Of a stretch of DNA of 50,348 bases, positions 3,302 to 32,121 are shown piece by piece. Origin of the DNA: an uncultured Candidatus Bathyarchaeia archaeon (GTDB lineage Archaea > Thermoproteota > Bathyarchaeia > Bathyarchaeales > Bathycorpusculaceae); contig CAYGYI010000001.1 of assembly GCA_964354055.1 (NCBI GenBank), positions 1 through 50,348 of the forward strand. The letters are read 5' to 3'. Made by a program: the position numbers and the translations under genes. Positions within the stretch are counted from its first letter, which is position 1. The number at the start of each line of letters is the position of its first letter. Below the pieces are notes generated by a model. That model made no database searches. It was not told where the DNA came from and saw only the letters and a program-made list of their open reading frames with translations.

Positions 3302-3496
3302 CTAGGTGTCGGCAATCGCACAGTTCTCTTCCTCTATGATTGTCGTGATTTCCAGCGTGTCTTCTTTTGCAGTTGCCTCGGAGTCGTGTGGTCTGCGTTC
3401 GACTTGTTTGGAGCTTGTGTAGAAGAGGGCCCATCCGATCAGCCACATGAACGCCGCCACTGGAAATAGAAATATGGTGATTATGTGCCTTCGCAT
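3302..3496 (-). CDS. small single-pass membrane protein
   Basis: 64 aa with one hydrophobic helix (IITIFLFPVAAFMWLIGWALFY). It is co-directional with and 95 bp downstream of the sortase fusion gene. Confidence 0.45.
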   Translation of the reverse strand: MRRHIITIFLFPVAAFMWLIGWALFYTSSKQVERRPHDSEATAKEDTLEITTIIEEENCAIADT

Positions 3497-3590: not shown

Positions 3591-6500
3591 TCAACGTTTG
3601 AGCTTGAGCCTAGTTGGTATCAGGTTTCTGAGTATGTCTATTGGTTTGCGTTTCTCTGGAAAGGAAATTTCTGTTTTCCACGCTTGCACGGGTTCGTCTT
3701 CTATGTTGGCTATCTTCTTTTCTACTATGCCGGTTTTTTCTGCGTCAGAGAGTCTCTGGATCAGTTCTTCTTTACTCGTTGTTTGTCCTGTGATGTTTGC
3801 GAAAGCTTGCAGTATGGTGTTCAGTGTGGGTGGTTTTTGTTTTTCGGCTTGTCGGACTGCATCTATGATTTGCTTGTTGGTTTTGGAGAGTTTGCCGTAT
3901 GCTATTGTGTTCTGTTTCTTCTCTTTTCTCTTGTCTAGGGCGTACAGTAGGATTATTGCGACTAGGAATGCCGTTGTTAGGATGAACAGCTTGTCTCCGT
4001 TGTGGGACAGTAGCAGTGCGGTTTGAGACCATGTTTTGATTGATCCCCAATGTTCAGTTATTCGTGTGGCTACTATTAGAAGCTCGCCTTCTATTGCTGG
4101 AACTTCTCTTATTGAGTTTGGGTAAGCTATGACGCTTATTTTCACTTGTTTTGTTTGGGCTGTTGAGTTGATTCTGAAGACTGAGGTTTCGTACCAGTAC
4201 AGCACTGCTTGAGTTTCATTTGTGTCTGTGTAGTTGAAAGCGAAGTAGCGACCGATTATAGGCGGATTCTGGAGTAGTAGGATGTCTCTCAGGTCGATTT
4301 GGTTGACTGTGGGCTGTTTTCCGTGGGTTAGCGGCCATGTTATGAGGCAGGTTTCCCATCGATGAAGCGATGACTTGGCCGAGGCGATTTCCACGGTCAC
4401 CCAGATCCAGTATCCGCTTTCGTTTTCTGGCTCATATAAGTAGATTAGGGACGCGTCCTGCTGGGCTCTTTGTTCGAATGCTTCGTCGCGACCCAGATAG
4501 TGGAGTATGTATTCGTTGAGTTGTGGCAGGAGGGCTGTCGTTGCGTTTCCGCCTGTGGCGGTTTGCGTAATTATCTCTGCCGGGCCTTCTGTTAGCGCGA
4601 ATACTGGTGTTTGTATGGACATGACGAGGACTACGCTGAGGATCAGCGCTGAAACCTTTGCCAGGTCTTTCTTGCGAATCTTGTTGAAGTGCATATTCTG
4701 TATTTTGCCGCACGCGAGACAGAAGTCGTCGGCTGTTTTTGGTTGGGGGCTGCATTCTGGGCATTTCAGTGTCGGTCTTGGCGTTATTCTGGTTTTGAAG
4801 AGTTTTTCTGAGATAACGAGCAGCATGAATGTGCCGAGAAAGATCAGTACCCATCCGCCGAATAGGTGGAACATGTTCAGGGCCAGATCTTCGCCGTAGT
4901 AATATCCTAGTATGCCTATTATTGCGATGCGTAGCACGTTGAGCATGTATATTAGTGGAAATCCTAGAAGGAACATTGCTCCTTTTTTCCAGAGCTTGTC
5001 TCTGATTATGTACGCTATGAAGAGGGCAAAAATGAAGAAGCCTATTTGAGAGTATATGCCTGAACAGGCGATGTCAACTTGTAGAGGAATGATGGTTCCG
5101 TCTGGTTGGGTGACGGTTATTGTCGGTATGCCGTCTATGGTGCTTAGGCTTACTGGGATGCTGAGGATCTTCAATAGGTTGTATGACAAGTCAGAGCTGA
5201 AACTTGAGAGTAGCGAGCCAACGTAGTACAGGATTTCTGCTGGTGGTGGAACGAGCAGAAAGAGGAAGACTATTGGGAAGAGAATTTGTCTTAGGGTCTG
5301 CATGTTAAAGAGTATGAGCACGCACGCTGACACAAAGATCGGCAGTGCCAGCATATGGTATTCCAGCGGGGTGAATGTATAGGAGCCGTACCAGTAGAGC
5401 AGAAGTGAAGCCAGGAAAAGCAATGCGCCCGCAACTTCGTTGAGTGGGATTTTCTTCCACAGTTTTGATGGTTCGAGGGGCACTGCTGCTTTGATCATTT
5501 TTCTTTTGCGGTAGAAAAGGTAGGCGAGCAGGAACGGGATTACGAGTACGTAGCTTGTGACTTCGCTTTGCAGAGCATCAGTGAATATTATAGTTAGGTC
5601 CTGCCAGAACAGCACGAGTGCAGTTGCTCCTACTACGGCGGCTTTGACGATCACAATTAGGGTTTCTCTGGTCGTCGACAGGACCCACTGTTGATATCTT
5701 ATGATTGGGGCTGCAATAAGTGCCAGCAGACGGGTTTTTTTTGTGACCTGTGTGATCATTTGAAGCTCGGATGCGGTCACAATTTTTGTCATTGGCGCCA
5801 ACGTTATGTAGGTGAAAAGGTAAAGGAGGGCGCCTACTCCAAGGTCCGTGATTCTGGACAGATGAGCAAAACGTGTTAGCAGAAGCGGGGGCACGCTGGA
5901 TATGGCTGAAACCAAGTAGATTTTGACGAGAGAACGAGTGTCAAATTCGATGTGAAACTTTCTTCTGGCGCGGTATGAGCCATATGCTATGCCTGCTGTG
6001 CTTGCGATCAGTATAGCTATAATTGAGCCTTGTACGCTGTAAGCGCGTGTGAGTATTGGGGATAGGACAGCAAGTATTACGAAGCCGATTAGGCTTATCA
6101 TTAAAGTAGTTTTTGTTTCTCCTAAGCCATTGAAGAAACTTGTCAGCGTGAGGTAGCCCAGTCCGACGAGAAGATAGATGAGGCAATATGTTGCCAGGAA
6201 TTGCGGAGCCGTCTGGTATTCTAAGCCGTAGATTATCTGCACAATTTGGGTGGAATACATTATGATGAGCACTGTTATCGGCAGAACGAGCTCAGCGGTG
6301 TATTTGTTTGCGAGTTTGAAGAATCTCTTTATCTTCTGGTCTGTTGAAGAATCAAGTTTGGCGAATGCAGGCAACAGCGCAGTGGTTATCGGTATCGAAA
6401 CCACGGACAATAGTGTGGCGAAGTTTGTGGCTGCTTTGTAGTTTCCGACGTCGGCTGTTGTTGTGAAGATTGCCAGCATAAAGCCTTGGTAAAACGAGAT

Positions 6501-7235
6501 GAATCCTGACAGCAGCAAAGAAATGTAAAGTGGTGCGCCGTATTTCATGAGGGTTTTCAGGTCATCTTTGACGTTCTGGTCATTCTTGGGATCTTGCTTT
6601 TTGCGTAGTACGATGAAGAGGATGAAAGCTCCGGCGGCAGCAGCAATTATGTAGCTTGCCACATGTCCCGTTATTGCGCCTGCTACTCCCAAGCCTAGAA
6701 GCACGAGTGCGATGGACAGTATGCTTTTGGCTAGTGCCTGGATGTTTGTTGCCAGCAGGTTGTACTCTGTTTTGTCTAGGCCTACGAATGCTGAGGTTGC
6801 GGTTGAGAATATTACCTGGAAGAGTACTGAAACTGATGCTAACCTGACGTAGAAGGCTAGTTCTGCGCTATTGAGAACTGTCGATGCAAGGAGGTCTGCG
6901 AAGGCGTAGTTTATGATGAATAGGACTATTCCCACCGCTGCTCTGAGTAGTAGAGCGTACTTGAGCATTTTTGTTAGCCGATTTAATTCGCCTTTTGCGT
7001 TGAGACCTGCGGCGAATTTTGTTACGCCCTGTCCTATGCCGAGGTCTGCGAAAAGATAGAGAAGTTGAGGTATAAGAAAGGCGAGCGTGTATTGCCCGTA
7101 CAGGTCAGGACCCAGAAATCTTCCGACAAGTATTGAAGCAACTGCCATGATGACAGTTGCCAGAGCCGTTCCTGAGATCAGAAAGAAGCTACCGCGGGCT
7201 GAATCCTCCGCTATTTTGACTAGTTCATCTGCCAT
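3591..7235 (-). CDS. multidomain membrane protein: Wzx/MOP-like polysaccharide flippase + archaeosortase/exosortase core + Cys4 zinc ribbon + EpsI-like ectodomain + wHTH-like tail
   Basis: Uninterrupted 1214-aa ORF starting at ATG 7235. The motifs are DIACSGIYS, MLNVLRIAI, MFHLFGGW, CPEC-x10-CLAC and LHRWETCL...VLYWYE. About 22 hydrophobic helices are predicted. Confidence 0.9.
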   Translation of the reverse strand: MADELVKIAEDSARGSFFLISGTALATVIMAVASILVGRFLGPDLYGQYTLAFLIPQLLYLFADLGIGQGVTKFAAGLNAKGELNRLTKMLKYALLLRAAVGIVLFIINYAFADLLASTVLNSAELAFYVRLASVSVLFQVIFSTATSAFVGLDKTEYNLLATNIQALAKSILSIALVLLGLGVAGAITGHVASYIIAAAAGAFILFIVLRKKQDPKNDQNVKDDLKTLMKYGAPLYISLLLSGFISFYQGFMLAIFTTTADVGNYKAATNFATLLSVVSIPITTALLPAFAKLDSSTDQKIKRFFKLANKYTAELVLPITVLIIMYSTQIVQIIYGLEYQTAPQFLATYCLIYLLVGLGYLTLTSFFNGLGETKTTLMISLIGFVILAVLSPILTRAYSVQGSIIAILIASTAGIAYGSYRARRKFHIEFDTRSLVKIYLVSAISSVPPLLLTRFAHLSRITDLGVGALLYLFTYITLAPMTKIVTASELQMITQVTKKTRLLALIAAPIIRYQQWVLSTTRETLIVIVKAAVVGATALVLFWQDLTIIFTDALQSEVTSYVLVIPFLLAYLFYRKRKMIKAAVPLEPSKLWKKIPLNEVAGALLFLASLLLYWYGSYTFTPLEYHMLALPIFVSACVLILFNMQTLRQILFPIVFLFLLVPPPAEILYYVGSLLSSFSSDLSYNLLKILSIPVSLSTIDGIPTITVTQPDGTIIPLQVDIACSGIYSQIGFFIFALFIAYIIRDKLWKKGAMFLLGFPLIYMLNVLRIAIIGILGYYYGEDLALNMFHLFGGWVLIFLGTFMLLVISEKLFKTRITPRPTLKCPECSPQPKTADDFCLACGKIQNMHFNKIRKKDLAKVSALILSVVLVMSIQTPVFALTEGPAEIITQTATGGNATTALLPQLNEYILHYLGRDEAFEQRAQQDASLIYLYEPENESGYWIWVTVEIASAKSSLHRWETCLITWPLTHGKQPTVNQIDLRDILLLQNPPIIGRYFAFNYTDTNETQAVLYWYETSVFRINSTAQTKQVKISVIAYPNSIREVPAIEGELLIVATRITEHWGSIKTWSQTALLLSHNGDKLFILTTAFLVAIILLYALDKRKEKKQNTIAYGKLSKTNKQIIDAVRQAEKQKPPTLNTILQAFANITGQTTSKEELIQRLSDAEKTGIVEKKIANIEDEPVQAWKTEISFPEKRKPIDILRNLIPTRLKLKR
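3594..3935 (-). other. domain: charged helical, wHTH-like cytoplasmic tail (aa 1101-1214)
   Basis: NKQIIDAVRQAEKQKPPTLNTILQAFANITGQTTSKEELIQRLSDAEKTGIVEKK resembles the N-terminus of the adjacent DUF1616-like protein. Confidence 0.35.
3936..4664 (-). other. domain: TM-flanked EpsI/DUF3485-like ectodomain (aa 858-1100)
   Basis: A TM helix (VSALILSVVLVMSIQTPVFA) is followed by about 200 aa containing SLHRWETCLITW and QAVLYWYE, then a second TM helix (LFILTTAFLVAIILLYAL). Confidence 0.5.
4710..4763 (-). other. domain: Cys4 zinc-ribbon (CPEC-x10-CLAC)
   Basis: Residues C825, C828, C839 and C842 lie between the last sortase TM helix and the next TM helix. This segment is predicted to be cytoplasmic. 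Confidence 0.6.
4791..5663 (-). other. domain: archaeosortase/exosortase (EpsH-like) core (aa 525-815)
   Basis: Cys724 lies in DIACSG (codon 5064-5066), Arg769 in NVLRI and His790 in MFHLFGGW, all embedded in TM helices. Confidence 0.7.
5691..7235 (-). other. domain: Wzx/MOP-type polysaccharide flippase-like region (aa 1-515)
   Basis: It has 12-14 hydrophobic helices. The N-terminal FFLISGTALATVIMAVASILVGRFLGPDLYG and the overall organisation are typical of polysaccharide biosynthesis (Wzx-like) transporters. Confidence 0.65.
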
Positions 7236-7256: not shown

Positions 7257-7874
7257 CTACGTGGATTTCCTGATTCTGGCTTGGTGTTCTCGTGCCACTG
7301 CGACTGTGGCGAATATGGTTGTAAGCGTCAGCAGGCTTAGTACTATGGGGGTCAGTCGTATGCCCCATGGCGTGTAGTTCAGGAGCAAGCCGACAAGCGG
7401 GACTAATGCTAAGCTTAGACCTATGCTGAGTGCTATGCGTTCCACGGTGTCAAGGTTTGTTGTGGTTTTTATTTGAGCTTGGTTCTCTTTGGGGAATAAG
7501 GCTTTTATGAAGGTGTAGCCAGGCAGCCATAAAACGAAGATTGTGCCGAGAATGTATCTCATGTAAACTAGTGGGAAAGCGTTTTCTGGAATAGCGAAAA
7601 CTACTGCTGCAGTCACCAGAGTCAAAACCATGGTTTCCCAGAACCAGCGGGCTTTTTTTGTCTGCAGGTAGGTTTTCAGGTTTTGAGGTGTGGGTTCTAC
7701 TGGTTCTTTTAAGGTTATTTTTCCCTCGTTTTGAAGGCGAATGACGCAATCAACTATCTCGTGCTCTGTAAGAGAAGGGAGCTTTTCTTTGGCGAGATTT
7801 GCTAGCTCCTCTACGCTTTCGGGTTTGAACTCTCTTATTAACTGGATTATGGCCTCGGCTGTTTCATTCTTCAA
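7257..7874 (-). CDS. DUF1616-like archaeal membrane protein (N-terminal wHTH-like module + 4 TM helices)
   Basis: 205 aa starting at TTG 7874; there is no in-frame ATG nearby. It lies 21 bp upstream of the fusion gene. A TATA-like cttttatag sits about 37 nt upstream on the minus strand. Confidence 0.75.
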   Translation of the reverse strand: MKNETAEAIIQLIREFKPESVEELANLAKEKLPSLTEHEIVDCVIRLQNEGKITLKEPVEPTPQNLKTYLQTKKARWFWETMVLTLVTAAVVFAIPENAFPLVYMRYILGTIFVLWLPGYTFIKALFPKENQAQIKTTTNLDTVERIALSIGLSLALVPLVGLLLNYTPWGIRLTPIVLSLLTLTTIFATVAVAREHQARIRKST

Positions 7875-7970: not shown

Positions 7971-8729
7971 TTACTTCTTTCGTTTGGCTACGCGCAGTAA
8001 TCCTAGAGCTCCGAACGGTGCCGCAACCAGTGCCATTGTTGCCAGTTCTGGAACCACGAGCGTGCTTTTGCTGAATGAGCTGCATGCGTCGAATGGTTGT
8101 GGGGTGACGCATTCTGGACCTACTGATAGCGTGGTGTGTTCATATCTTCCCAGTGCCAGCACTAGAGCTTTGACGCTTGAGACTGGTGAGGTGAACTCGA
8201 GAACCAGCGTGAAGTAGTTTGGCGGCGTTACTCTTATCTTGTTCAAGAAGAATTTGTAGCCGTAGTAGATTGGGTTTCCTGTTTCTCCCATGTTGCTTTT
8301 GACGGCTGCGACTTCATATCGGCATTCTGAACCGGGGTATCCTGTTGCTGAGTTTGCGTTGCCTGGGGGTATCTTCTTGGTTGATGCGGGTATGAGTGCA
8401 AAGTCTGCTTTGGTCATGAATGTTGAACCGTTTATCGTGATTCTGTCAAGAGCATCGTATGTCGGCTTGTTTAGCACTATTAGGAGCCAACCGTTCTTGA
8501 TTTTTCCGCTACCTGTGTGGAAAATCATGAGGTCTGCGGGGGTTGTTGTAATCAGTGGGCCGTCGCTTTTCGCTTCTTCCGTGCCTACGGGTATCACTTT
8601 TATGGTGTGTCTGCACTCCGTACAGTCTATTTCGACAGTGGCGTAAACTAGCGGCGAGAGAACCAGAGTTGCACTCAGAGCAGCTAGTATGACTGTTAAT
8701 GCCAATGTTAGCCTTCTCATGTGAATCAT
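7971..8729 (-). CDS. secreted protein with PEF-CTERM-like (VVPEL) C-terminal sorting signal, paralog 1
   Basis: The signal peptide is MRRLTLALTVILAALSATLVLSPLVYA and the C-terminus is VVPELATMALVAAPFGALGLLRVAKRKK*. ATG at 8729 or 8720 is more likely than the ORF-track GTG at 8747. Confidence 0.85.
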   Translation of the reverse strand: MIHMRRLTLALTVILAALSATLVLSPLVYATVEIDCTECRHTIKVIPVGTEEAKSDGPLITTTPADLMIFHTGSGKIKNGWLLIVLNKPTYDALDRITINGSTFMTKADFALIPASTKKIPPGNANSATGYPGSECRYEVAAVKSNMGETGNPIYYGYKFFLNKIRVTPPNYFTLVLEFTSPVSSVKALVLALGRYEHTTLSVGPECVTPQPFDACSSFSKSTLVVPELATMALVAAPFGALGLLRVAKRKK

Positions 8730-8899
8730 CCAGAAAAAGAACCGCACTTCTGCTTTAAAAATACATGTGGAGTGATCCTATAGAACAATTCTCTACAATG
8801 GCTAGTCAAACGTAGCCCAATATTATTAGGAACCCAAAACAATCAATAGCACAGAACAAAGAAAGAGTTACTCTCGGTTTCGATTTGACTTTGATGGCT

Positions 8900-9562
8900 T
8901 TATTTGAGCTGTGGCACTTTTCTGCGTTTCACCGAGAACAATGCCAGAGCGCCGAAAGATCCCATTGCTAACAGGATTGTCCCTAGTTCTGGAACTACGA
9001 AACCCGGATTGGTCGGCGGTACCCAACGGTTGAGCTTCGTGTCAGATGCGCAAGCCTTGCCGAGAGCGTACACCAGCATTTTTGGGTTTGTCGAGTGCAG
9101 AGTGACGGTGAATTGCTGTGGCGTCGTATGAAGTGCACTTCCTCCCAAGAAAGGCTTCATTGCCCAGTACACTGAAGATTCGCCTGGCAATCCTAGGTGA
9201 TCGGCGAGTGATGAGCGCGTGTACTGTTTTTCGCTTATGCTGTCTGCGGGTATTTTGGGTGGGGGGGAACCAGAAATCAGTGTAAAGTCGCTCTTCGCGA
9301 ATGTTACTGATCCGCCTGTCCATGATACTTCGACGTTTGTCAATCCGTTATAGCAGGCAACTGTCATGACGAGCAGAATGTGGGGGGCATAGGTGGGGTC
9401 AGAAGCAGGAGTTGTGCTAATGTTAAATGTGGCTGGCGTGTTTTGCGTTAAAGGCCATTGCGGAGTTATTACTATGATTGAGCTGTTCACTTTGGCGAAA
9501 ACGGTCGGAATCACAATCAAAGATAACGAAACGAGAAGCATGAGTATTGTTATTTTTTTCAT
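8900..9562 (-). CDS. secreted protein with PEF-CTERM-like (VVPEL) C-terminal sorting signal, paralog 2
   Basis: ATG at 9562 is preceded by AGGAG (the complement of 9569-9573). The signal peptide is MKKITILMLLVSLSLIVIPTVFA and the C-terminus is VVPELGTILLAMGSFGALALFSVKRRK. Confidence 0.85.
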   Translation of the reverse strand: MKKITILMLLVSLSLIVIPTVFAKVNSSIIVITPQWPLTQNTPATFNISTTPASDPTYAPHILLVMTVACYNGLTNVEVSWTGGSVTFAKSDFTLISGSPPPKIPADSISEKQYTRSSLADHLGLPGESSVYWAMKPFLGGSALHTTPQQFTVTLHSTNPKMLVYALGKACASDTKLNRWVPPTNPGFVVPELGTILLAMGSFGALALFSVKRRKVPQLK

Positions 9563-9594
9563 TCCTATCTCCTCAATCAAAGCTGCAAGTCTCC

Positions 9595-9765: not shown

Positions 9766-9981
9766 TTATGAAGCGGCAACCAAGCCGACGATCCTTATGG
9801 CCACCGTTCCCAGGAATAAAATCGCTACCGTTACCGCTACGTTCCTGAGCCTTTTCCTGCTTATTTGAATGTTTATCCTACCGTAGTAGGGGGAGAGCAT
9901 TTCAGACGTTATCAGTAGTATTATGGCGGTTACTGCTAGCCATAGGCTTACGTCCCAGAGGCCTAGTGGGAAAGATGTCAT
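9766..9981 (-). CDS. small 2-TM membrane protein
   Basis: 71 aa. Its ATG overlaps the stop of the upstream gene (ATGA at 9978-9981), which suggests translational coupling. Confidence 0.6.
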   Translation of the reverse strand: MTSFPLGLWDVSLWLAVTAIILLITSEMLSPYYGRINIQISRKRLRNVAVTVAILFLGTVAIRIVGLVAAS

Positions 9982-11294
9982 GTTGATTGTTCCTCTTCGG
10001 TCTCGTCTAAGAGGACATATTCTATGGTGATTGTCTTGCCGTCTTTGCTGATCTCGTTTCCATTTATCGTGATCGGCTTGCCTGTGGCTTTTGCGAGGAC
10101 GATTGCGATGGCGCTGGAGATGGGGCTACCCAACGACTGTGCTGTGTTTGAAAGTTTGAGGGTTTGTTCGTGAACGTTTTTGAATATGGTGTTTTCGATT
10201 GCGACTTGGACTAGGCCGTTCTTGTTTTCTATTCTTATGTCTTCGGCGATTTCTAGGTCTTCTATGAAGAGTTTCGGCATGTTTTGCTGGACGTAGTTCA
10301 GGTCCACTTTTGTGAAGTTTGTGCCTAGCGTCTTTTCAAAGAGTCTTGCCAGTTCGGCGCCTGGCGGCGTTACTAGGAGAGCTTGGAAGTTTTCGATGTA
10401 GATTTTGTCTTCTTGTTTTTGGATATGTTCTGGCAGTGGCAGTTTGTCGCCTTCGTTTTTGAGCACGCAGGCTTTGCTTGTTTCTGGGTCTTTGAGGTAT
10501 TTTGGCGGCAGGTATATTGTCTTGCCTTTGTATCCAAGTCCCTGCATCGTTTGGTCCAGTGTGAGAAGCTGGGACGATTCTGCTGTATCCAGGAGGGATT
10601 TCTTTGTGTATTCCTCATTCCGGACGTACATGAGTACGGCGCCCCAGAATACCAGCCCTAAGCCGATGAAAGCAAGAATTGACGAACTGTAGCCGATAGA
10701 GGCAACGAGGGCTATGGTGCCTGTGAGTAGCATCAGAAGGCGAGCAAGTTTTGGTGGGTCGATGTCGACCTGTGGGCGTGCGCTGAGGACCATCAGTGTT
10801 GCAGAGAGTATGGTTATTGTGGTGGCGAATCCTTCGAAGGCGAGCATGAAGTCGGCATATGTCCAGTATTTGGTTGCCCATGTGTTGCTGAATTGCAGGC
10901 CGTATTGGTAGAGGTCGCTGTTAACCACGTAATCTAGGCGGCTGAAGGAGACCGCGGAAAGAGCTGTCGTAACAACACCCACGGCGATGAGGATGTAGCT
11001 GACGAATCTTGCGGAAGTGTTGCGGTTTCGCACGTGAATCAGGACTAGCGCCATGGACATTCCTGTTAGAACTATGGAGATTCCGAGAAAGCTCAGGGTG
11101 AGCTTCGAGTAGGTTGAATATTTCGCGTACCATTCATCACTGTACTGTAATCCATGATCATAGAGGTCGCTGTTAACGATGGTGTCTACGCGCATGAAGA
11201 AGAATGCTGAAAGAATGTTCAACGTGATTCCGGCTAGCAAAAGAGCCAGAATCACTTCAGGCTTGAACGGAACGCGCACTTTCATGTCATTCAC
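9978..11294 (-). CDS. polytopic membrane protein with internally duplicated N-terminal module and ~200-aa soluble C-terminal domain
   Basis: 438 aa. The repeated unit is TM - R(V/L)DxxVNSDLYx(H/Y)GLQ(Y/F)SxxWxxKYxTY - TM, seen at aa 11-88 and 96-172. I do not recognise a family. Confidence 0.8.
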   Translation of the reverse strand: MNDMKVRVPFKPEVILALLLAGITLNILSAFFFMRVDTIVNSDLYDHGLQYSDEWYAKYSTYSKLTLSFLGISIVLTGMSMALVLIHVRNRNTSARFVSYILIAVGVVTTALSAVSFSRLDYVVNSDLYQYGLQFSNTWATKYWTYADFMLAFEGFATTITILSATLMVLSARPQVDIDPPKLARLLMLLTGTIALVASIGYSSSILAFIGLGLVFWGAVLMYVRNEEYTKKSLLDTAESSQLLTLDQTMQGLGYKGKTIYLPPKYLKDPETSKACVLKNEGDKLPLPEHIQKQEDKIYIENFQALLVTPPGAELARLFEKTLGTNFTKVDLNYVQQNMPKLFIEDLEIAEDIRIENKNGLVQVAIENTIFKNVHEQTLKLSNTAQSLGSPISSAIAIVLAKATGKPITINGNEISKDGKTITIEYVLLDETEEEQST

Positions 11295-11455: not shown

Positions 11456-12085
11456 TTACGTGTACTGGTCTCCATAGTGTCTGGTTACAGCGAAGTAGTC
11501 TACTAAGTCGATTTTGCCGTCGCGGTTAGTGTCGGCTTTTGGGTTCCAATTTGTGGATCCTTCGACGGACCCGTATAGGCTTGAGACGGTGAAGAAATCT
11601 AGGAGGTCGACTTTGTTGTCTTGGTTCACGTCCCATGGTGCGTATTTGCTTCCTTCGAAGATTATGTCAAAGCTGAAGGTGGTAATTCCTCTTGTGGCTG
11701 TGGAGACGTATAGGGATAGGGTGACTTTGACGACTTCGGCTGTTGCGAGTCTTTCGGCTTCGGAGAGCCATTCGAAAGTTAGAAAGGTGGAAGTGTTTTT
11801 CGGGTTCCAGTTTGCGTGTCTCAGGGTCAGGAAGGAGGATGTGTTTCCTTCGTTTCTTGCGTAGACTGTTACTCTTTTGCTTTGGCTCGGCGATAAGACC
11901 CCCCATCCTATGGATGGTACTTTTCGTGTGCAGGCTTTGTCCCAGTAAACTCCGATGCTGCCGGGTGTTGCGATGGCTGAGACGTTGGGGATGATTGTTT
12001 TAGGAGATAGGTATTCGGCTATGGCTAGGGTTGTGATGAGAGCAAAAATCAGGATGATGCCGCTGGCCTTTCCGGGCGAAACCAA
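11456..12085 (-). CDS. secreted/anchored protein with C-terminal type I dockerin-like module
   Basis: TTG start; N-terminal hydrophobic segment. The C-terminus carries DVNQDNKVDLLDFFTVSSLYG ... DTNRDGKIDLVDYFAVTRHYG, two EF-hand-like dockerin repeats. Confidence 0.8.
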   Translation of the reverse strand: MVSPGKASGIILIFALITTLAIAEYLSPKTIIPNVSAIATPGSIGVYWDKACTRKVPSIGWGVLSPSQSKRVTVYARNEGNTSSFLTLRHANWNPKNTSTFLTFEWLSEAERLATAEVVKVTLSLYVSTATRGITTFSFDIIFEGSKYAPWDVNQDNKVDLLDFFTVSSLYGSVEGSTNWNPKADTNRDGKIDLVDYFAVTRHYGDQYT

Positions 12086-12398: not shown

Positions 12399-12851
12399 AT
12401 GGCGATGCAGAAAGCACAATTGCCAATCATCCTGACAATCATAAGCTTAGCAAGCGTCGGCAGCATAGTTTTCGCTCTTCTCTCTTCAAGCCAGACCGTC
12501 TCCAACACGGGAAACGTGAAAACCATCGGAGTCAAAGTCTACAAAGACGCCGCATGCAGCCAGACTCTTTCAAGCATAGACTGGGGAACAATGACCCCGA
12601 ATTCGGCAAAGAACTACATGGCCTACGTTCGTAACGAGGGCACGGTATCGCTCACGTTAAGCAAGACAACCGGCAACTGGAATCCTGCAGCAGCTTCAGG
12701 ATACATGGCGTTGGGTTGGAACCGTGAAGGCTACATACTTACCTCCGGAGCGTCAGTTCAAGCAGTCTTCACTCTGACAGTGTTCTCAAACGTCACGGGA
12801 GTCCCAAGCTTCACGTTCGACATAACTTTAACAGGGACAGAAGGCGCATAA
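12399..12851 (+). CDS. small secreted/anchored beta-rich protein, paralog of the N-terminal domain of 11456..12085
   Basis: 150 aa. The N-terminus is MAMQKAQLPIILTIISLASVGSIVFALL. The core GVKVYKDAACSQTLSSIDWGTMTPNSAKNYMAYVRNEGTVSLTL aligns with GVYWDKACTRKVPSIGWGVLSPSQSKRVTVYARNEGNTSSFLTL. Confidence 0.8.
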   Translation: MAMQKAQLPIILTIISLASVGSIVFALLSSSQTVSNTGNVKTIGVKVYKDAACSQTLSSIDWGTMTPNSAKNYMAYVRNEGTVSLTLSKTTGNWNPAAASGYMALGWNREGYILTSGASVQAVFTLTVFSNVTGVPSFTFDITLTGTEGA

Positions 12852-15919: not shown

Positions 15920-16957
15920 CTAAGCTTGCGTGCTCAATCCATTCCAGTTTGAGGATGCAATAACCTGATCCGCACTTCCTTTAAGCCAATGGTTTCTAGA
16001 GTACAGCCACCAAATGAATCCTGTTTTGAGTTTCAAGCCCAGGTTTATCGCTTCTCTTGCGAAGTACATTTCGGCATCTATGCGCTCAAGCGTATCAGCA
16101 TAGTGAACCCCCGTTTCATCAAACCAATGCTTATATGAAGGGTGACGACCGGCCCATTGAACGGCTCTACTATTAGGGTCACTAAGAGCGTCTATCTGAG
16201 CTTGAGCTTCCTGCACAGTCGTTGGATATGGCTTCTTGCTCCAAATGTGATGCGAAATCACTATGTTGCTTCTTTGAAGATCTGGTGGTATGTCGTACCA
16301 TCTCCAATAAGAGGGATTTGGATAGACAATCGGTTTGTTCCAGCCCATAGACCTTATGTTGTCTGTGACTCTCACTAGTGCTGTAAGAAAAAGCCTTACT
16401 GATTCAGCTTCAGTAGCTCCATGTAGGTAGTAGTGCATACATTCGGGCGTTGGTTCGTTAAAAAGTTGGAAAGCTACGATTCTCGAATCATTCACAAACT
16501 GCCTAGCAAATTGAGACCAACGGGTGTACCATTGAAGAGACCCGATGAAGCCAATATGGTCATCATCGTTATGAAGGTCTAGTACGATCCGATAGCCATA
16601 AGACGCAATCTTACTCACTACTGCTTTGAATTGGTTCAAAGCATCAGTAGTGACCACTTTGTTGAAGGAGTCGTCACTCAATCCAAAGGCCAACCTGAAA
16701 GTGTTGAATCCCCACTTCTTGGCCCTTTCGAGAGTTTCGTTAAGCGTAGGGCATAGCCAAAACTCGCCAATTCCACCCGAGACTGTTGTCGTTACACCAC
16801 CTTTAACGTCGTCTTTAGGTTGGAATGTTTCCTGATCAGTCAATGGCGACGACAAGATCGTCGATGGAACTGCACTTCCGTGAACGAGAGTGGCGTTGAT
16901 AAGAAGCAGAGGAAGTAGCCCAATAGCTATCGCCACCATTGTTTCTGTTCTGCCCAT
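15920..16957 (-). CDS. glycoside hydrolase family 5-like (cellulase/mannanase fold), secreted
   Basis: Motifs are WGFNTFRLAF, the acid/base motif FQLFNEP and the nucleophile region WFDETG. ATG at 16957 follows a purine-rich SD-like stretch; the ORF-track GTG at 16984 is also possible. Confidence 0.85.
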   Translation of the reverse strand: MGRTETMVAIAIGLLPLLLINATLVHGSAVPSTILSSPLTDQETFQPKDDVKGGVTTTVSGGIGEFWLCPTLNETLERAKKWGFNTFRLAFGLSDDSFNKVVTTDALNQFKAVVSKIASYGYRIVLDLHNDDDHIGFIGSLQWYTRWSQFARQFVNDSRIVAFQLFNEPTPECMHYYLHGATEAESVRLFLTALVRVTDNIRSMGWNKPIVYPNPSYWRWYDIPPDLQRSNIVISHHIWSKKPYPTTVQEAQAQIDALSDPNSRAVQWAGRHPSYKHWFDETGVHYADTLERIDAEMYFAREAINLGLKLKTGFIWWLYSRNHWLKGSADQVIASSNWNGLSTQA

Positions 16958-17094
16958 TGCTTCCTTTCTCCCTTTGTTAAGCACTAAAGCAATACCATAT
17001 GGGGGTTGTCTCTATGCTGTTCATTGAATGGAAAGGGGCGCACATAAGGCTTTCAGTAAGTGAACTCTAGAAGTCTATTCCATCAATGGGTTCG

Positions 17095-21538: not shown

Positions 21539-22444
21539 TCATAAAACCCAGATTTGTCCGTACAAGAGAAGGACCGTGAACAGCAGAACATAGCTTGAAA
21601 ACATTGTTATTGGGCCAAATATCGTCTTCACGGGTGCGGGCATGTGGCGAAGCCAAAACGAAGGTGCAATAGTTATGGCAAGATAAAGGACAAAAAGAAA
21701 CAGAGAAAATGTGTTAAACCAGCCCAAGACAAAGAAGAACGCAAATTCAACAACTCCTACGAGCACGGACGATCTGAAAAGGGTTGTTGCGGTTTTCAAT
21801 CCCTTTGTTACTGCCACGGTTCCTTTTGCTGTTATGAGATCGACTTTGTAGTGTTTAATTTCGTGTGCGAATCGGTGAATCATGGCTAGAACCGCAAAAA
21901 TAGAGGATACGATTACTGCCTGGGGCGTTACAGTACCTATGGAAGCAACCCCGGCAATGAAAGGTAAGAAGCAGCCTGCGAACTGTATCAATGTGGAGAA
22001 TGGATACTTCATCTTCAGCCTGAATGGTGGGACAGAGTAAAGCGTCCCTAGCAATGCCATTGCAAGGGCGACCGCGAAAAGGCTCACAGAAGCAAATCCG
22101 GCGGACAGAAGCCCAACCAGAACAATCAAGAAAGTTATCGCCAACGCTGTTCTTCTTGAGATTATGTTTGAGACTATCAGCTCTTTGCCCATAATCTTTT
22201 TCTTTGTTTCATCTATTTCCACGTCAAAGCAATCATTGACAGATTGAATGTAACACAGTATCAATGGTATTCCGATAACCAGTCCTTGGAATTGAAGCAG
22301 AGAGAAACTGTTGTTTGAATCGAGCGCGTAGGCAAAGCCCAGAACAGCTGCTCCGAACCATTTTTGCCATCCGAGAACATCCACTAGCCCAAGCAAACCG
22401 CGTATGTAGAGGATGATTCGATTTGTTTTCAAACGGTTCCGCAT
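21539..22444 (-). CDS. UbiA-family prenyltransferase (DGGGP-synthase-like) with a reduced second Asp-rich motif
   Basis: The first motif is NDCFDVEIDETKK (NDxxDxxxD), and there are 8-9 TM helices. The second-motif region reads HEIKHYKVDLITAKGT. The start is ATG 22444 or 22465; either overlaps the upstream gene. Confidence 0.8.
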   Translation of the reverse strand: MRNRLKTNRIILYIRGLLGLVDVLGWQKWFGAAVLGFAYALDSNNSFSLLQFQGLVIGIPLILCYIQSVNDCFDVEIDETKKKIMGKELIVSNIISRRTALAITFLIVLVGLLSAGFASVSLFAVALAMALLGTLYSVPPFRLKMKYPFSTLIQFAGCFLPFIAGVASIGTVTPQAVIVSSIFAVLAMIHRFAHEIKHYKVDLITAKGTVAVTKGLKTATTLFRSSVLVGVVEFAFFFVLGWFNTFSLFLFVLYLAITIAPSFWLRHMPAPVKTIFGPITMFSSYVLLFTVLLLYGQIWVL

Positions 22445-23811
22445 CCTTTCTGATCTCTCATGCATCTTCTCTTTGCGATAGCAGCGACAAGCAAGATGAT
22501 CATCATGAGCGGGAGCAGGGTTACTGCTGACGGAAATTCTGGTACGACATTGACGGATTTGATGATTACTTCGTGTCCTGAGTGATTGTAGGCGAAGTAT
22601 AGGTGTGTGTTGGTGTCTTCTGTAGCCTCAAGGTCGATTATTGGAGAGCCGTTAACAGTCACGTTCCATTGGGTTAAATAGTCGCACCACATGAACGTTT
22701 TAGGTATGGAAATGTTGCAGTAGCCTATGGTGGCCGGTAGGCCTGTCACGTTGAAGCTTATTTGTTTTAGGGAGTGGTTGAAATTGAAGTTCGTTATAGT
22801 CGAGTTGCTTGCGGCGGTTATCGTGCAGTTTGAGCTCTGCCATGAAACATTGAATGTGTAAGTGCGCTCACGTGCAAACCATCTTAGCCAAACGCCGCTT
22901 TCAGGGTTGAGCAGCGAGTTTACGCCCAGTGCCGTTGCCTGCGGTTTAGGGTACAGTTCAGAGGAATTAGGTGCGAAACCTGCGTAGAATTTGCCAGCCG
23001 ATTCAATCCTGATATAGCAGCTTTCGATGAAGCTGAGGCCTCTGCTGATGGCAGAGTCTATCAGACTCTGGTCAACAGTGGTTTGGTTTCTTGCCAGTTC
23101 GAATGATCCTATCATGAAGGCTGTTTCTGCTGAGTTGTAGTCCCAGCTTCCATCTTCTTTCTGCTGATACAAAGCAATGTTAACAACATCATCAACTCTT
23201 GGGACCAGCGCGCCCAGTTGAAAGAGATTCAACATCAAATGTGTTCTTTGATGGTTATAGTAAGCCCATGTGTCAAAGCTGTTGTTCACTGCGTCTAGGA
23301 ACTCGTTCGTCCAAGGCGGGCTTTCTCCCTTGTAAACAACATAGCTTGTAACATACCCCCATAGCCCACCCCAAAAGTTTCCTGAGTCATATGTCTGAAC
23401 GTGGTCAACTACCTTTTCCCAAGTATCGACTGTCGAGAAGAAAGGCTCCAGCGATTTTGCCGGCTTGACTCCTGATCTGTTGTAGAACATCAGGATTTGA
23501 GCCGTTATCGGAACATAATGATTTTGTCCTGTCCCCCAAGTTCCCTCGTCTGATTGCATGCTATTTAGATATTCTATTATTTCAGTTCTGTTAGGAACCT
23601 CTGTCTCAAGTATGTCGTAGCTGTCAAGCGTGAATACAAGATCTAGCATTCCTATTCCTGTGCCACGGTTCAAATTGTAATCCAAGTAGTTGAGGATTTC
23701 CTGTTGATTGATTTCCGAAGGTTCTTGGGCGACTCTGAAGAAACTGAAACTCATCACTATAATCAGGAACGTGCTCGAGATTGTCTTTCCAAATTGCCCG
23801 CACATTAGCAT
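22429..23811 (-). CDS. secreted protein with prenyltransferase/terpene-cyclase-like alpha/alpha-toroid repeats, Ig-like domain and PEF-CTERM sorting signal
   Basis: Q-x2-DG-x-W-type repeats are present (MQSDEGTWG, QQKEDGSWD). The C-terminus is VVPEFPSAVTLLPLMMIILLVAAIAKRR. The probable start is ATG 23811. Confidence 0.85.
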   Translation of the reverse strand: MLMCGQFGKTISSTFLIIVMSFSFFRVAQEPSEINQQEILNYLDYNLNRGTGIGMLDLVFTLDSYDILETEVPNRTEIIEYLNSMQSDEGTWGTGQNHYVPITAQILMFYNRSGVKPAKSLEPFFSTVDTWEKVVDHVQTYDSGNFWGGLWGYVTSYVVYKGESPPWTNEFLDAVNNSFDTWAYYNHQRTHLMLNLFQLGALVPRVDDVVNIALYQQKEDGSWDYNSAETAFMIGSFELARNQTTVDQSLIDSAISRGLSFIESCYIRIESAGKFYAGFAPNSSELYPKPQATALGVNSLLNPESGVWLRWFARERTYTFNVSWQSSNCTITAASNSTITNFNFNHSLKQISFNVTGLPATIGYCNISIPKTFMWCDYLTQWNVTVNGSPIIDLEATEDTNTHLYFAYNHSGHEVIIKSVNVVPEFPSAVTLLPLMMIILLVAAIAKRRCMRDQKGCGTV

Positions 23812-24027
23812 CTTCCCTACTTGAATGCAGTCCTCATTTGTGTGCATCGGGCAATAAATAGAGAGTAGTTCCAATGGACAGTGTTTTCATAGAATTGGAT
23901 CCTCCAGTGACCTTGTCTCAATACTTCCCTTAATAGGCTTCCTTCACATCCTGATATTTTGGCTCTTCGGATGCTCTTGAAAGCGTTGGCAAGACGTTGT
24001 AGAGAGTCGCAATCGATTTCTGTTCTG

Positions 24028-25191
24028 TCAGAACAAATGCCCTGCAAGAGTACGTACTGCATCGTAGATTCTGTTAATCATTGAATGGTTGTCAACGAAA
24101 ATTCGAGTCTCTATGTAGAGATTGTAGTTCCTTTTCACGATATCTAACATTCTCCGCTGGGCTCGGAGCGTATTGCCAAATTTGCGGAGGAATGACTCTT
24201 CGTACTCCCGGAGTCTGATTGCGCTAACATCACCTTCAGCTAGAGCCTCAGTCGACGCTTTGCCAGCCAATGCACCTGCCTGCATGGCATAATAAATGCC
24301 ATTTCCTCCGAGGGGGCCGACTTGACCTGCGGCATCGCCGACTATTAATATGCCATCGCCGCACATTTTGGGGCTGAGTCTTAGGGGTAAACAGGCAGCC
24401 TGAATATCGGACTGCCACGTTATATTGGAAAGAATTCCTGAAGCGATTGGGTGCTCATATATGAGGTACTGGAGATTTCGTTTCAGGCGACCTTCTTTTA
24501 CGTGTGATAGGAGGCTTCCCAAGCCCACATTGTAACCGTGCTTTTTGGGATAGATCCAACCGAATCCACAAGGTGAGACATCTGACCCATAGAAAAAGTG
24601 TTTGGTGTCGGCTATCACTTCGCTTTCCTGTTTAACATATGTCTCGCATTGTATGGCTAGACCAATATCTGAAGGCCTATAGTGTGGCTGGAGGCCGGCT
24701 GATCTAGCGGTGATCGAATGAAAACCATCAGCGGCTATGACGATTTTCGCAAGAAGTTTCTTTGGACCTCCCGGCGTCTTAGCAGTCACGCCTGTTACTT
24801 GGTTCCCTTCTTTCAAAACTCCTAGACAGCAGCTGGATGTCAGTAACGTCACACCTGCGTCAACTGCACGCTCTACCAGATATGGATCAAAGTCCTTTCG
24901 ATAGACAACAGCAGATTCTATCTCTTCAGTCATACATCTCCTCTCACTAGGAGCATACAAAATGTGCTTCTTGGTATGGCACTGAATGACACTGTCATCT
25001 ATGTCAAACTCCCGAAGGATCCTGATGTCCAGCCCTCCCGCGCATACTTTCATGCCGGGTCGCTGGCACTTCTCGAGAAGAGCTACCCGTAGGCCATTTT
25101 CTGCACACTTTCCTGCCGCCGAAGCTCCGCCTGGGCCGGCGCCAACCACGATTACGTCGTAACTAGCACGCGTTTCAAGTCTTTTAGCCAT
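24028..25191 (-). CDS. geranylgeranyl reductase family FAD-dependent oxidoreductase, paralog 1
   Basis: The FAD-binding motif is YDVIVVGAGPGGASAA and the GGR-type motif is VGDAAGQVGPLGGNGIYYAMQAG. The probable start is ATG 25191. Confidence 0.88.
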   Translation of the reverse strand: MAKRLETRASYDVIVVGAGPGGASAAGKCAENGLRVALLEKCQRPGMKVCAGGLDIRILREFDIDDSVIQCHTKKHILYAPSERRCMTEEIESAVVYRKDFDPYLVERAVDAGVTLLTSSCCLGVLKEGNQVTGVTAKTPGGPKKLLAKIVIAADGFHSITARSAGLQPHYRPSDIGLAIQCETYVKQESEVIADTKHFFYGSDVSPCGFGWIYPKKHGYNVGLGSLLSHVKEGRLKRNLQYLIYEHPIASGILSNITWQSDIQAACLPLRLSPKMCGDGILIVGDAAGQVGPLGGNGIYYAMQAGALAGKASTEALAEGDVSAIRLREYEESFLRKFGNTLRAQRRMLDIVKRNYNLYIETRIFVDNHSMINRIYDAVRTLAGHLF

Positions 25192-25257
25192 CTTACGTTT
25201 CTCCTTTTTCCTGAAACAGCGTGTGCTCATACTTGAGGTTTGAAAATGTCATATGTC

Positions 25258-31236: not shown

Positions 31237-32121
31237 TTACTCTCGGACTCCTTTTTCAGCTCCTATTTTCTTGTTAGTCTCTTCCACAGCTTTCAAGAGC
31301 CTAGGATCATGTCCCACGCCTTCAGAGAATTTGATGAATGCCTTGAGGTCTTTCGGCAGACATTTGCCTCCGAATGCCTTGCCATGGATTGTTCCGTACT
31401 TTCCTATTCTTTCGTCCATGGCTGCCACGTTTGCGACAAGGTTTGAATCCACGCCCAGTTTCTGGCAAATGTAGAAAATCTCGTTCCAATAGGAAATTCT
31501 GCTCGCGAGCGCACAGTTGCATGCAAGTTTGATCGTTTCAGCTGTTGTCAGGTCGGTCCTGATGATTGGGATGTTTAATGAGCGATAGAGAGCTTCAAGG
31601 ATGTCGCCACTTTTCTTGCTGAATTCTCCGATGACTATTCTGTCTTCGTTGAAGAAGCCTCTAGAGAATTTGTCGCCATCGCTCCATGTGTGGCTGATCT
31701 CTGTCAGGAATTCGGGATTTACACAGACTCCAACCTGTTCATCTACGCGCTTTCCTGAGGTTTTCTCCAACAATGGTATCAGGTTCTTCTCCGTTGTTGT
31801 TGGTATGACTGTGCTTTTTACAACGACTAAATGGTAGCCGTTTTTGTTTCTTAAGTGTGAAGCTAGGTTTTCCACGACGGCTTTTACGGAGGTTAGGTCC
31901 ATTCCTTTGTCGGTTACGGGTGTAGGAACGCATATGAAGGAGATTTCGGACTTGGCGATGGCATTCTCGATTTCAGTTGTTGCCACAAGTCCGGAGTTGT
32001 TGAGCTGCTTGACTCTGTTCTCATCTATGTCATAGAAAACCAACTGGTTGCCCAACTGGAGTAACGATTTTCCGACGATTGTTCCTATCGTTCCGCTTCC
32101 TAACATGGAAATTCTGGCCAT
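31237..32121 (-). CDS. UDP-glucose/GDP-mannose dehydrogenase family protein lacking the C-terminal nucleotide-sugar-binding domain
   Basis: The Rossmann motif is ISMLGSGTIGTIVG and the catalytic-Cys motif is FGGKCLPKD. The protein stops about 35 aa after that motif (294-301 aa in total). The probable start is ATG 32121. Confidence 0.8.
   Translation of the reverse strand: MARISMLGSGTIGTIVGKSLLQLGNQLVFYDIDENRVKQLNNSGLVATTEIENAIAKSEISFICVPTPVTDKGMDLTSVKAVVENLASHLRNKNGYHLVVVKSTVIPTTTEKNLIPLLEKTSGKRVDEQVGVCVNPEFLTEISHTWSDGDKFSRGFFNEDRIVIGEFSKKSGDILEALYRSLNIPIIRTDLTTAETIKLACNCALASRISYWNEIFYICQKLGVDSNLVANVAAMDERIGKYGTIHGKAFGGKCLPKDLKAFIKFSEGVGHDPRLLKAVEETNKKIGAEKGVRE

Follow-up and report, generated by a model that had tools for sequence, protein, structure and literature searches.

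The prediction of exosortases in 2006 rested on their perfect co-occurrence with PEP-CTERM proteins and on their location in exopolysaccharide loci. In bacteria their genes lie in exopolysaccharide (EPS) loci, where EpsI is fused or adjacent to the exosortase EpsH (Haft 2006, PMC1569441), and as of a 2018 review exosortases were without experimental analysis (PMC6098224). Here we analyzed a stretch of 50,348 nucleotides (nt) from an uncultured Candidatus Bathyarchaeia archaeon (GenBank assembly GCA_964354055.1, contig CAYGYI010000001.1, positions 1 to 50,348), referred to below as the window. Bathyarchaeia are an abundant uncultured sediment lineage. The window contains a single unbroken open reading frame (ORF) of 1214 amino acids (aa), running from an ATG start over 3591..7235 on the minus strand, in which a Wzx-type flippase is followed by an exosortase core, a Cys ribbon, an EpsI-like ectodomain, and a winged-helix-like tail. 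This ORF is genuine and under selection, and it joins two neighboring genes of a conserved bathyarchaeal cell-surface cassette in a single polypeptide. Its exosortase-EpsI part represents a large undescribed archaeal family in Bathyarchaeia that has its own sorting signal and fixed partners. The searchable literature yielded no description of a flippase fused to an exosortase or archaeosortase, or of this bathyarchaeal family, and a previous annotation made from the bare sequence of the window (the original prediction) likewise knew of no described sortase-flippase fusion.

In architecture, the exosortase-EpsI part (hereafter S+E) is nearest to bacterial EpsH-EpsI fusions, among them XrtD and XrtW, and it would work like them; the original prediction had rightly noted that such fusions exist in bacteria (Haft 2006, PMC1569441). 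With XrtD (VPLPA-CTERM-specific, TIGR04152), XrtW (NF038142), and EpsH/EpsI it shares a core of eight transmembrane (TM) helices with Cys, Arg, and His, a further TM helix, and an outer EpsI domain of ~200 aa; tripartite C-terminal signals with P-E and a location in glycan-biosynthesis loci are also common to both. Of the NCBIfam models, XrtD gives the window core its highest score (122.6 bits), although the match covers just the core half of that model; the window ectodomain aligns with PF11984 proteins recovered from an XrtD C terminus. Unlike XrtD and XrtW, the window protein has an archaeal host, a Cys ribbon between the core and EpsI, a second TM helix and a winged-helix-like cytoplasmic tail after EpsI, and an N-terminal flippase. 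Its partners (DUF7982, DUF1616, and a 70-aa protein) differ as well, as does the signal, which is FVVPE-x rather than VPLPA or VPEP.

The archaeosortases ArtA (PGF-CTERM, Haloferax volcanii) and ArtB to ArtE belong to the same superfamily (TIGR04178), share the proposed Cys/Arg/His chemistry, and have archaeal hosts. Substrates of ArtA carry a motif, a TM helix, and a basic tail, like the presumed substrates described below, and are glycoproteins that become lipid-anchored. However, ArtA has no EpsI domain, ribbon, winged-helix tail, or flippase, and its motif is PGF, whereas here it is VPE. Archaeosortases were described in Euryarchaeota, unlike this family in Bathyarchaeia; ArtA-dependent lipid anchoring in Haloferax and the proposed sortase-like chemistry are covered by the same review (PMC6098224). 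The N-terminal part of the window protein shares with Wzx/PST flippases full-length PF01943/PF13440 matches, ~14 TM segments, and a setting among glycosyltransferase and sugar-nucleotide genes, and is unlike them in being covalently joined to a sortase (or, in a related protein, to DUF7982). AglR of Haloferax is an example of an archaeal PST/MOP flippase. A precedent for an exosortase fused to a polytopic membrane enzyme is XrtE (exosortase E/CAAX-protease, VPEID-CTERM), whose signal also contains V-P-E; such EpsH-CAAX protease proteins were discussed as 'Rosetta stone' fusions (Haft, PMC1569441). In XrtE, however, the partner is a C-terminal protease and not an N-terminal flippase, and XrtE was not among the NCBIfam matches.

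The fused protein and its modules

Scans against Pfam and NCBIfam placed both Polysacc_synt and Exosortase_EpsH above their gathering scores, a domain content well outside what chance would give. The flippase module (F) matches Polysacc_synt (PF01943) at aa 13-294 (6.5e-31, 108.2 bits versus a gathering score of 28.2, model positions 2-273 of 274) and Polysacc_synt_3 (PF13440; 1.2e-23, 84.3 bits versus 23); partial matches to MOP flippase family models were also found. A crude hydropathy scan shows 14 TM segments within aa 19-480, with basic residues clustered in alternate loops, and then a basic loop (481-524). The Wzx-like flippase that the original prediction had placed at aa 1-515 thus agrees with models above the Pfam cut-offs. 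The module is an ordinary PST-family flippase, for which translocation of a polyprenyl-phosphate-linked glycan is predicted.

The sortase core (S) matches Exosortase_EpsH (PF09721) at aa 537-808 (3.5e-41, 141.7 bits versus 25.7) and the exo_archaeo signature TIGR04178 (66.7 bits versus a cut-off of 23). Cys724, Arg769, and His790 (C204, R249, and H270 in S+E numbering) are invariant in 89/89 aligned relatives; they lie in the motifs DIACSGIYS (721-729), MLNVLRIAI (764-772), and MFHLFGGW (788-795). All motifs quoted in the original prediction occur at the residues given there, in an uninterrupted ORF of 1214 aa with Cys724 at 5064-5066. Its codon coordinates fit the minus strand, although the strand itself had been left unstated; a plus-strand reading of 3591-7235 was ruled out by stops throughout. 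None of the NCBIfam subfamily models claims the window protein: among the named exosortase subfamilies (XrtA, B, C, D, F, V, W, and X), the best scores all lie below the respective cut-offs, with XrtD at 122.6 versus 400, XrtW at 98.7 versus 425, XrtA at 91.3 versus 208, and 8TM_EpsH at 84.1 versus 105.55, and the archaeosortase subfamily models ArtA to ArtG gave zero matches at E<=1. Judging by the partial matches to XrtD, XrtW, and XrtA, the core is closer to bacterial-type exosortases than to the named archaeosortases. The exosortase/archaeosortase core predicted earlier therefore holds at the level of the superfamily (PF09721, TIGR04178), and its second half, 'archaeosortase', applies only as a label for the host. 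A tblastn search of the core against plasmids returned one marginal match, xrtE, and searches of PDB sequences with profiles of S+E and of the ectodomain returned zero relatives.

A strongly basic loop after the sortase core (810-862 in the hydropathy scan) holds the ribbon, with CPEC at 825-828 and CLAC at 839-842. Both CxxC knuckles of this Cys4 ribbon, which had been noticed in the window protein before, are kept in 79/89 relatives (CxxC...CxxC); the pattern in 10/89 is C...CxxC, several with His replacing the second Cys. C305, C319, and C322 (S+E numbering) are invariant in the 89-sequence alignment. CPEC-x10-CLAC is best described as a zinc-ribbon-like motif with predicted metal binding. 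Beyond the ribbon, 882-1082 form an acidic 201-aa loop with five N-X-S/T sequons, and the TM helix 1083-1101 is followed by a basic tail of 113 aa. The topology proposed earlier, with ribbon and tail inside and the ~200-aa domain outside, is self-consistent by hydropathy, which also predicts both joined termini (the flippase C terminus and the sortase N terminus) to be cytoplasmic. An AlphaFold2 (AF2) model spanning aa 521-1214 (694 aa; mean predicted local distance difference test score, pLDDT, 81.9; predicted template modeling score, pTM, 0.78) comprises a helical core, a ribbon of low confidence (56-70), an alpha/beta ectodomain (pLDDT ~90-95), two long helices, and the tail.

Assigning the ectodomain required sensitive comparisons. 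Nothing above noise came out of Pfam and NCBIfam scans of the ectodomain, the tail, or the C-terminal 390 aa, and the window ectodomain had no match at E<=10 to the EpsI/DUF3485 hidden Markov models (HMMs) PF11984 and TIGR02914. Among 31 family ectodomains, PF11984 was the sole Pfam family matched by more than one (3/31, sub-threshold, best E 0.04), and TIGR02914 (EpsI), from NCBIfam, was unmatched by all 31. A sub-family ectodomain consensus scored 12.4 bits versus 26.1 on PF11984, collinear over model positions 27-154 of 203. As a seed for EpsI we took an annotated XrtD gene near the plasmid xrtE match; its C-terminal half led to 194 proteins, and PF11984 was carried by 120/120 proteins among the matches listed. 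The ectodomain alignment (A3) was then compared by hhalign with 40 PF11984 EpsI proteins (A4), which resulted in a probability of 94.9%, E 4.4e-8, and 119 aligned columns, whereas the reversed and 20 column-shuffled controls stayed at a probability of <=1.0%. The comparison superposes H-x-W-E-x-C-L on I-H-S-P-E-V-C-L and V-L-Y-W-x-E on L-V-Y-Y-W-F-E. Because this profile-profile match comes with clean controls, we take the ectodomain to be a genuine, if remote, EpsI/DUF3485 homolog. Its placement fits the rule for EpsI (Haft 2006, PMC1569441): C-terminal to the exosortase, after a TM helix, and facing outside. The EpsI-like assignment in the original prediction, based on SLHRWETCL (956-964) and VLYWYE (1011-1016), was thus recovered by profile-profile comparison, with the same two motifs aligned, and was not recovered by standard HMM scans. 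Foldseek matches of the ectodomain against PDB were weak (3lyd, LpqN, Apa, and SciW/EagT6-type domains, best E 0.013) and point to a fold class, not a function.

In the AF2 model the tail consists of three helices and two strands (H598-613, H618-629, H635-647, E651-658, and E661-668 in S+E numbering; pLDDT 82-90), and its last ~20 residues are disordered. Foldseek linked it to the Orc1/Cdc6 winged helix (2v1u_A) with a probability of 1.0 but a weak E of 0.13; use of the entire 694-aa model as the query accounts for the low TM-scores. K595, T617, D660, P662, and W666 (S+E numbering) are invariant in the 89-sequence alignment. The winged helix-turn-helix-like tail predicted earlier is therefore matched in its H-H-H-beta-beta order, and not by any sequence family in Pfam or NCBIfam or by a strong Foldseek E value. 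The ribbon and this tail may have a regulatory or partner-binding role.

The cytoplasmic N-terminal 70 aa of the adjacent DUF1616 protein (gene 7257-7874) resemble the tail unit (3672-3884) in hhalign (P 0.0014; reversed control, P 0.12). With an hhalign probability of only 18%, homology between the two was not established; they may represent a shared or interacting winged-helix module.

Reality, origin, and recurrence of the fusion

A second assembly (L058, JGI sample 3300048653) contains an ORF of equal length (3645 nt) that is 96.6% identical at the nucleotide level, with no indel or stop. The two copies differ by 84 synonymous and 33 nonsynonymous codons, and the ratio of nonsynonymous to synonymous rates (dN/dS) is 0.12 overall; among the modules it is lowest for the sortase core (0.02), followed by the tail (0.15), the flippase (0.20), and the ectodomain (0.23). 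The junction is the same (0 differences in 15 codons), and the neighbors match those in the window, with DUF1616 upstream and a 64-aa ORF downstream. Orthologous fusions, which the original prediction had proposed to look for, also come from other samples at 46-59% identity: P0003 and P0004 (1209 aa each, ~50% identical to the window protein) and P0129, which is N-terminally cut by its contig. On the one hand, the window is metagenome-type sequence, and ~2 kb separates F and S in the closest unfused relatives, as might be expected if a chimeric join or a masked frameshift had made the 1214-aa ORF out of two genes or if it were a pseudogene. On the other hand, the identical length and junction in an independent assembly from another sample, together with the fused proteins from further samples, stand against such an origin. 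Because the independent assembly has the same ORF intact at a dN/dS of 0.12, the fusion is not an artifact; we see next to no chance of one and consider this explanation effectively refuted.

The 64-aa ORF directly downstream of the fusion gene (3302-3496, minus strand, in the window; 4634-4828 in L058) encodes a single TM segment.

The joined genes belong to a cassette in which D is a DUF7982 membrane protein, M a membrane protein of 70 aa, U a DUF1616 protein, F a flippase of ~525 aa, and S an EpsH-EpsI-type protein of ~680 aa; T stands for one or two secreted proteins (~220-270 aa). Their order in the window is D-M-T1-T2-U-F~S, all on the minus strand, where the tilde marks the fusion. The closest S+E relatives of the window protein are unfused, ~685 aa long, and 62-66% identical. 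One of them, in locus L057 (63% identical in S+E), has the gene order of the window apart from the spacer between F and S: D-M-T-U-F is followed by a cellulase gene of glycoside hydrolase family 5 (GH5) on the opposite strand, by 81 aa, and by S, with ~2 kb between F and S. In L054, F and S are neighbors separated by 45 nt. In L057, the free flippase ends in ..KYQKKILDIRANT, directly before its stop codon, and the sortase starts with MRQETLIV..; the window protein reads ..RYQQWVLS-TT-RETLIVIV... Because the junction residues map onto the C terminus of the free flippase and the N terminus of the free sortase, we infer that the fusion probably arose by an in-frame deletion of the last F codons and stop, the spacer, and the S start.

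Only five fused F~S protein clusters were found. The linker of P0003 and P0004 is ~15-20 residues longer than that of the window protein, and their genes lie in the order F~S-D-M-T (L001, L004) instead of D-M-T-T-U-F~S. In neighbor-joining (NJ) trees of S+E, the window protein grouped with the unfused relatives that are 62-66% identical in 194/200 bootstraps, P0003, P0004, and P0062 formed a clade in 200/200, and monophyly of all fused forms was obtained in 0/200; a single origin of all fusions was rejected on this basis. In line with the trees, the flippase half of the window protein is 55-63% identical to free cassette flippases (524-528 aa) and 47-49% identical to the halves in P0003 and P0004. 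The trees thus point to F~S fusions in at least two well-supported, separate clades. Other pairs of cassette members are also fused: F~D in P0006 (L003, in the order S, F~D) and S~D in P0113 and P0153.

P0153 (917 aa) deserves a separate remark. Its catalytic Cys is replaced by Trp (LDIGWSGIYS) and its ectodomain is lost, the ribbon and tail are kept, and DUF7982 is joined to them; P0153 represents either a gene in decay or a pseudo-enzyme. P0224 (1069 aa), a divergent member of the S+E family (24-38% identical), continues at its C terminus for 350 aa beyond the winged-helix tail. Judged by eye, this extension looks like NTP_transf_5, an uncharacterized nucleotidyltransferase family that is also matched by the window gene at 46712-47734 (PF14907, 1.4e-5).

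The S+E family, its cassette, and the sorting signal

The S+E module (sortase, ribbon, EpsI, and tail, ~680 aa) was found at 51 loci in GTDB species genomes, nearly all from Bathyarchaeia/Bathyarchaeota, which, together with the archaeal type of its other genes, also places the window in this lineage. The family comprises at least 1074 clusters at 90% identity and 309 representatives at 50% identity (E<=1e-30). Its members are almost all ~680 aa long and unfused, and the database names of relatives are generic ('exosortase' or 'exosortase/archaeosortase family protein'). All six modules (S, D, M, T, U, and F) were used as queries and mapped onto all loci; the 55 S-bearing sources counted are 54 related loci plus the window. 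D occurs with S in 27 of them, M in 25, U in 21, and F in 17, and all six modules are present in 9. Examples of the cassette are L007, L008, L011, L013, L018, L023, and L042, and its gene order is kept across proteins that are only 45-55% identical. D shares 50% identity with the DUF7982 part of P0006; PF25939 is precomputed on its orthologs. Its structural model, built from a four-sequence alignment, is of moderate quality (mean pLDDT 71, pTM 0.46), and the hydrophobic-ligand-binding folds that Foldseek suggested (H-NOX, Bet3/TRAPPC3, V4R-type sensors, and BcsD) matched too weakly (E>=0.08) to be usable as evidence. Coordinates of the fusion gene, its parts, and its partners are given in Table 1.

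Table 1. Positions of the fusion gene, its modules, and the associated genes in the window
Feature	Position	Strand	Basis or remark
Whole fusion gene (flippase, exosortase core, Cys ribbon, EpsI-like ectodomain, winged-helix tail)	3591..7235	-	1214 aa
F module, PST/MOP (Wzx-type) flippase, ~14 TM segments, aa 1-515	5691..7235	-	Pfam and hydropathy
Fusion junction, aa 516-524, ..RYQQWVLS-TT-RETLIV..	5664..5690	-	Comparison with unfused L057
S module, exosortase/archaeosortase-superfamily 8-TM core, aa 525-815	4791..5663	-	PF09721, TIGR04178, confident AF2 model
Putative catalytic Cys724 codon	5064..5066	-	Invariant among 89 sequences
Arg769 codon; His790 codon	4929-4931; 4866-4868	-	Both invariant among 89 sequences
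Cytoplasmic CPEC-x10-CLAC ribbon, aa 825-842	4710..4763	-	Cys conservation in relatives
Extracellular EpsI/DUF3485-like domain, aa 882-1082	3990..4592	-	hhalign, pLDDT ~90-95
TM helices bordering the ectodomain, aa 863-881; aa 1083-1101	4593-4649; 3933-3989	-	
Cytoplasmic tail, aa 1102-1214	3594..3932	-	Winged-helix-like unit ~aa 1118-1188 (3672-3884)
U, DUF1616 membrane protein	7257..7874	-	PF07760, 3.4e-33; 21 nt upstream of the fusion gene; 21/55 loci
T2, secreted protein with signal peptide, C terminus ..STLVVPELATMALVAAPFGALGLLRVAKRKK	7971..8747	-	Presumed sortase substrate
T1, secreted protein with signal peptide, C terminus ..PGFVVPELGTILLAMGSFGALALFSVKRRKVPQLK	8900..9580	-	Presumed sortase substrate
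M, 71-aa protein with two TM segments	9766..9981	-	Start overlaps the stop of D; 25/55 loci
D, DUF7982-type membrane protein, 438 aa, 6 TM and a soluble C-terminal domain	9978..11294	-	
Third protein with the same kind of C-terminal signal, ..NVVPEFPSAVTLLPLMMIILLVAAIAKRR.. (NVVPEFPSAV-TM-KRR)	22429..23874	-	

The T proteins of the cassette end in a tripartite signal: [FL]-V-[VI]-P-[ED]-x, a TM helix, and KRRK (the end of T1 is also given as ..PGFVVPELGTILLAMGSFGALALFSVKRRK..). Across the loci, a P[ED] motif followed by a hydrophobic stretch of 16-24 residues and a basic cluster was found in 61 ORFs versus 5 in a reversed-sequence control, and at least one such ORF is present in 36 loci. The consensus is F-V-V-P-E-[YSPLF]-x-x-G-x-L. 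The L001 ortholog of T1 ends in IVPEP-TM-KRKR and scores 15.7 bits against PEP_CTERM (cut-off 16; E 0.02). The third-position Pro of PEP-CTERM is not conserved in the T signals, although the overall shape is alike. The T signal is a PEP-CTERM-like one in an archaeon, and it fits the bacterial-type core and the presence of EpsI. A survey in 2006 found no PEP-CTERM in Archaea (Haft 2006, PMC1569441); sorting of this kind, once thought absent from that domain, would thus be present there in bacterial-type form.

The protein encoded at 22429-23874, with its VVPEF-CTERM signal, has a weak match to squalene-cyclase-like repeats (E 0.021). Its gene sits among those for a UbiA prenyltransferase, two geranylgeranyl-reductase-like flavoproteins, and a polyprenyl synthase (21539-22465, 24028-26511, and 27953-29005), so that a surface protein of the sorted type lies inside an isoprenoid-lipid gene cluster.

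In a second type of S+E locus (L025, L017, L020, L024, L037, and L040), D, M, U, and F are missing, and three to five distinct proteins encoded nearby end in [FN]V[VL]PE[YS]..G.L-TM-KK. Some genomes carry both types (L025 with L028; L030 with L032). Such pairs suggest that the sortases are paralogs, one acting on dedicated substrates and the other on general ones.

Other genes recur around the cassette. Paralogous small secreted or membrane-anchored proteins bracket it in the window (11456-12085, minus strand; 12399-12851, plus strand), with the common patterns ..S/TSQT..N.G.VKTIGV.VY.. and ..NW.P..; one of them has a C-terminal dockerin (PF00404, 1.3e-7). A homolog of 147 aa adjoins the cassette in L003 (14780-15223), a dockerin protein lies beside it in L057, and these small proteins may be further cassette members. 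GH5 'cellulase' genes are also recurrent: they are found in the window at 15920-16984 (minus strand) and 42141-43520 (plus strand), in L001 at 4128-5459, directly upstream of F~S, and in L057 at 4707-6071, exactly between F and S. The GH5 enzymes could process the glycan handled by the system.

Flipping, sorting, and the remainder of the window

The overall explanation that we favor, and hold to be probable, is that a real fusion of cassette genes reflects a complex of F, S, and D that couples glycan flipping to C-terminal protein sorting. Such a complex is proposed because the pairwise fusions F~S, F~D, and S~D occur in different lineages. Within it, F would flip a polyprenyl-phosphate-linked glycan, the product of glycosyltransferase and sugar-nucleotide genes around the cassette. 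In the window, the glycan context consists of epimerases/dehydratases, GT2, GT4, an NTP-transferase, and a UDP-glucose dehydrogenase; the lipid genes (polyprenyl synthase, UbiA, and geranylgeranyl reductase) are, like DUF1616, archaeal in type. S would use its Cys, Arg, and His to cleave the VPE-type signals of T1, T2, and similar proteins at the outer membrane face, where the EpsI-like domain would assist, and would transfer the cleaved T proteins to an acceptor. F, S, and D would act as one membrane complex, which would bring glycan delivery and protein sorting to the same site, and the flipped lipid-linked glycan would be the likeliest acceptor or co-substrate. The stricter version, in which the just-flipped lipid-linked glycan is the acceptor (nucleophile or carrier) for exosortase transpeptidation by an F-S-D machine, is offered tentatively, as a possibility that we think is more apt to fail than to hold. 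If it is true, VPE-CTERM proteins would be freed from their TM anchor and covalently attached to an envelope glycan or glycolipid of Bathyarchaeia; this would be the first concrete answer on the exosortase acceptor and would explain why exosortase genes are found in polysaccharide loci. The locus touches on long-standing questions (what exosortases use as acceptor, what EpsI does, and why there is a link to polysaccharides), and the idea that a flipped lipid-linked glycan is the sortase co-substrate is a testable one. The recurrent F~S, F~D, and S~D fusions are 'Rosetta-stone' evidence that a sortase, a Wzx-type flippase, and DUF7982 work together; along with gene linkage, they support, but do not prove, a coupling of flipping to sorting.

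Several points weigh against this explanation. This exosortase family has no defined acceptor, and, according to the 2018 review (PMC6098224), neither does any bacterial exosortase. F lies within 10 kb of S in only 17/55 loci. More than 99% of family members are unfused; a covalent link between F and S is therefore not required, and fusions could be tolerated simply because the genes are neighbors and both termini are cytoplasmic. The case for independent fusions rests on NJ trees of one protein, and P0062, the sister of P0003, is cut by a contig end. Finally, T1 and T2 of the window reach no curated sorting-signal model and have no match to PEP_CTERM (TIGR02595, cut-off 16 bits).

Alternatively, the fusion could be a neutral product of the neighborhood, with two halves that work independently and no mechanistic coupling: the flippase would serve general N-glycosylation or EPS export, and the sortase would put VPE-CTERM proteins onto lipid, as ArtA does. 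The rarity of the fusion (five fused clusters among >1000 family members), the absence of F within 10 kb of S in most loci, the short deletion that is enough for a fusion, and the compatible topology all agree with neutrality. However, neutrality is hard to reconcile with recurrence in separate clades with differing junctions and gene orders, with the finding that F, S, and D are fused in every pairwise combination, with purifying selection on each module of the fused gene, and with a cassette order conserved across proteins that are 45-55% identical. We consider this explanation unlikely. Less likely still, indeed improbable, is that S+E acts as a sensor or regulator, in which the ectodomain senses a surface cue, the ribbon and winged-helix tail relay it (e.g., to DNA or DUF1616), the core is a scaffold, and fusion to the flippase tunes export. 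A conserved cytoplasmic winged-helix-like tail with a ribbon is unusual for sortases, P0153, which is fused to D, retains the tail despite having Trp in place of the catalytic Cys and no ectodomain, and the weak similarity of the tail to the DUF1616 N terminus (P 0.0014, probability 18%) would fit such a relay. On the other side, Cys, Arg, and His are invariant in 89/89 aligned relatives, abundant cognate C-terminal signals are encoded beside S genes, and a membrane-tethered winged-helix domain need not bind DNA. Thus, the coupling of flipping to sorting by F, S, and D is the explanation that we retain.

The remainder of the window contains several further features; no tRNA genes were found in it. 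A giant surface protein of 1843 aa (36479-42010, minus strand) has three LamG-like domains (Laminin_G_3), two DUF2341 domains, and FG-GAP repeats; a regular-expression search found no VPE-type C-terminal signal in it. In the middle of the glycan-biosynthesis island, 34671-35775 (minus strand) encode an AbiEi_2-type antitoxin/regulator (PF09952, 1.4e-13) and small ORFs, possibly a toxin-antitoxin or abortive-infection module. The UDP-glucose/GDP-mannose dehydrogenase ORF (31237-32704, minus strand, 301 aa) contains the N-terminal and central domains only; the N-domain match starts at model position 63, and short ORFs lie just upstream (32262-32492 and 32489-32704). This gene is possibly frameshifted or disrupted.

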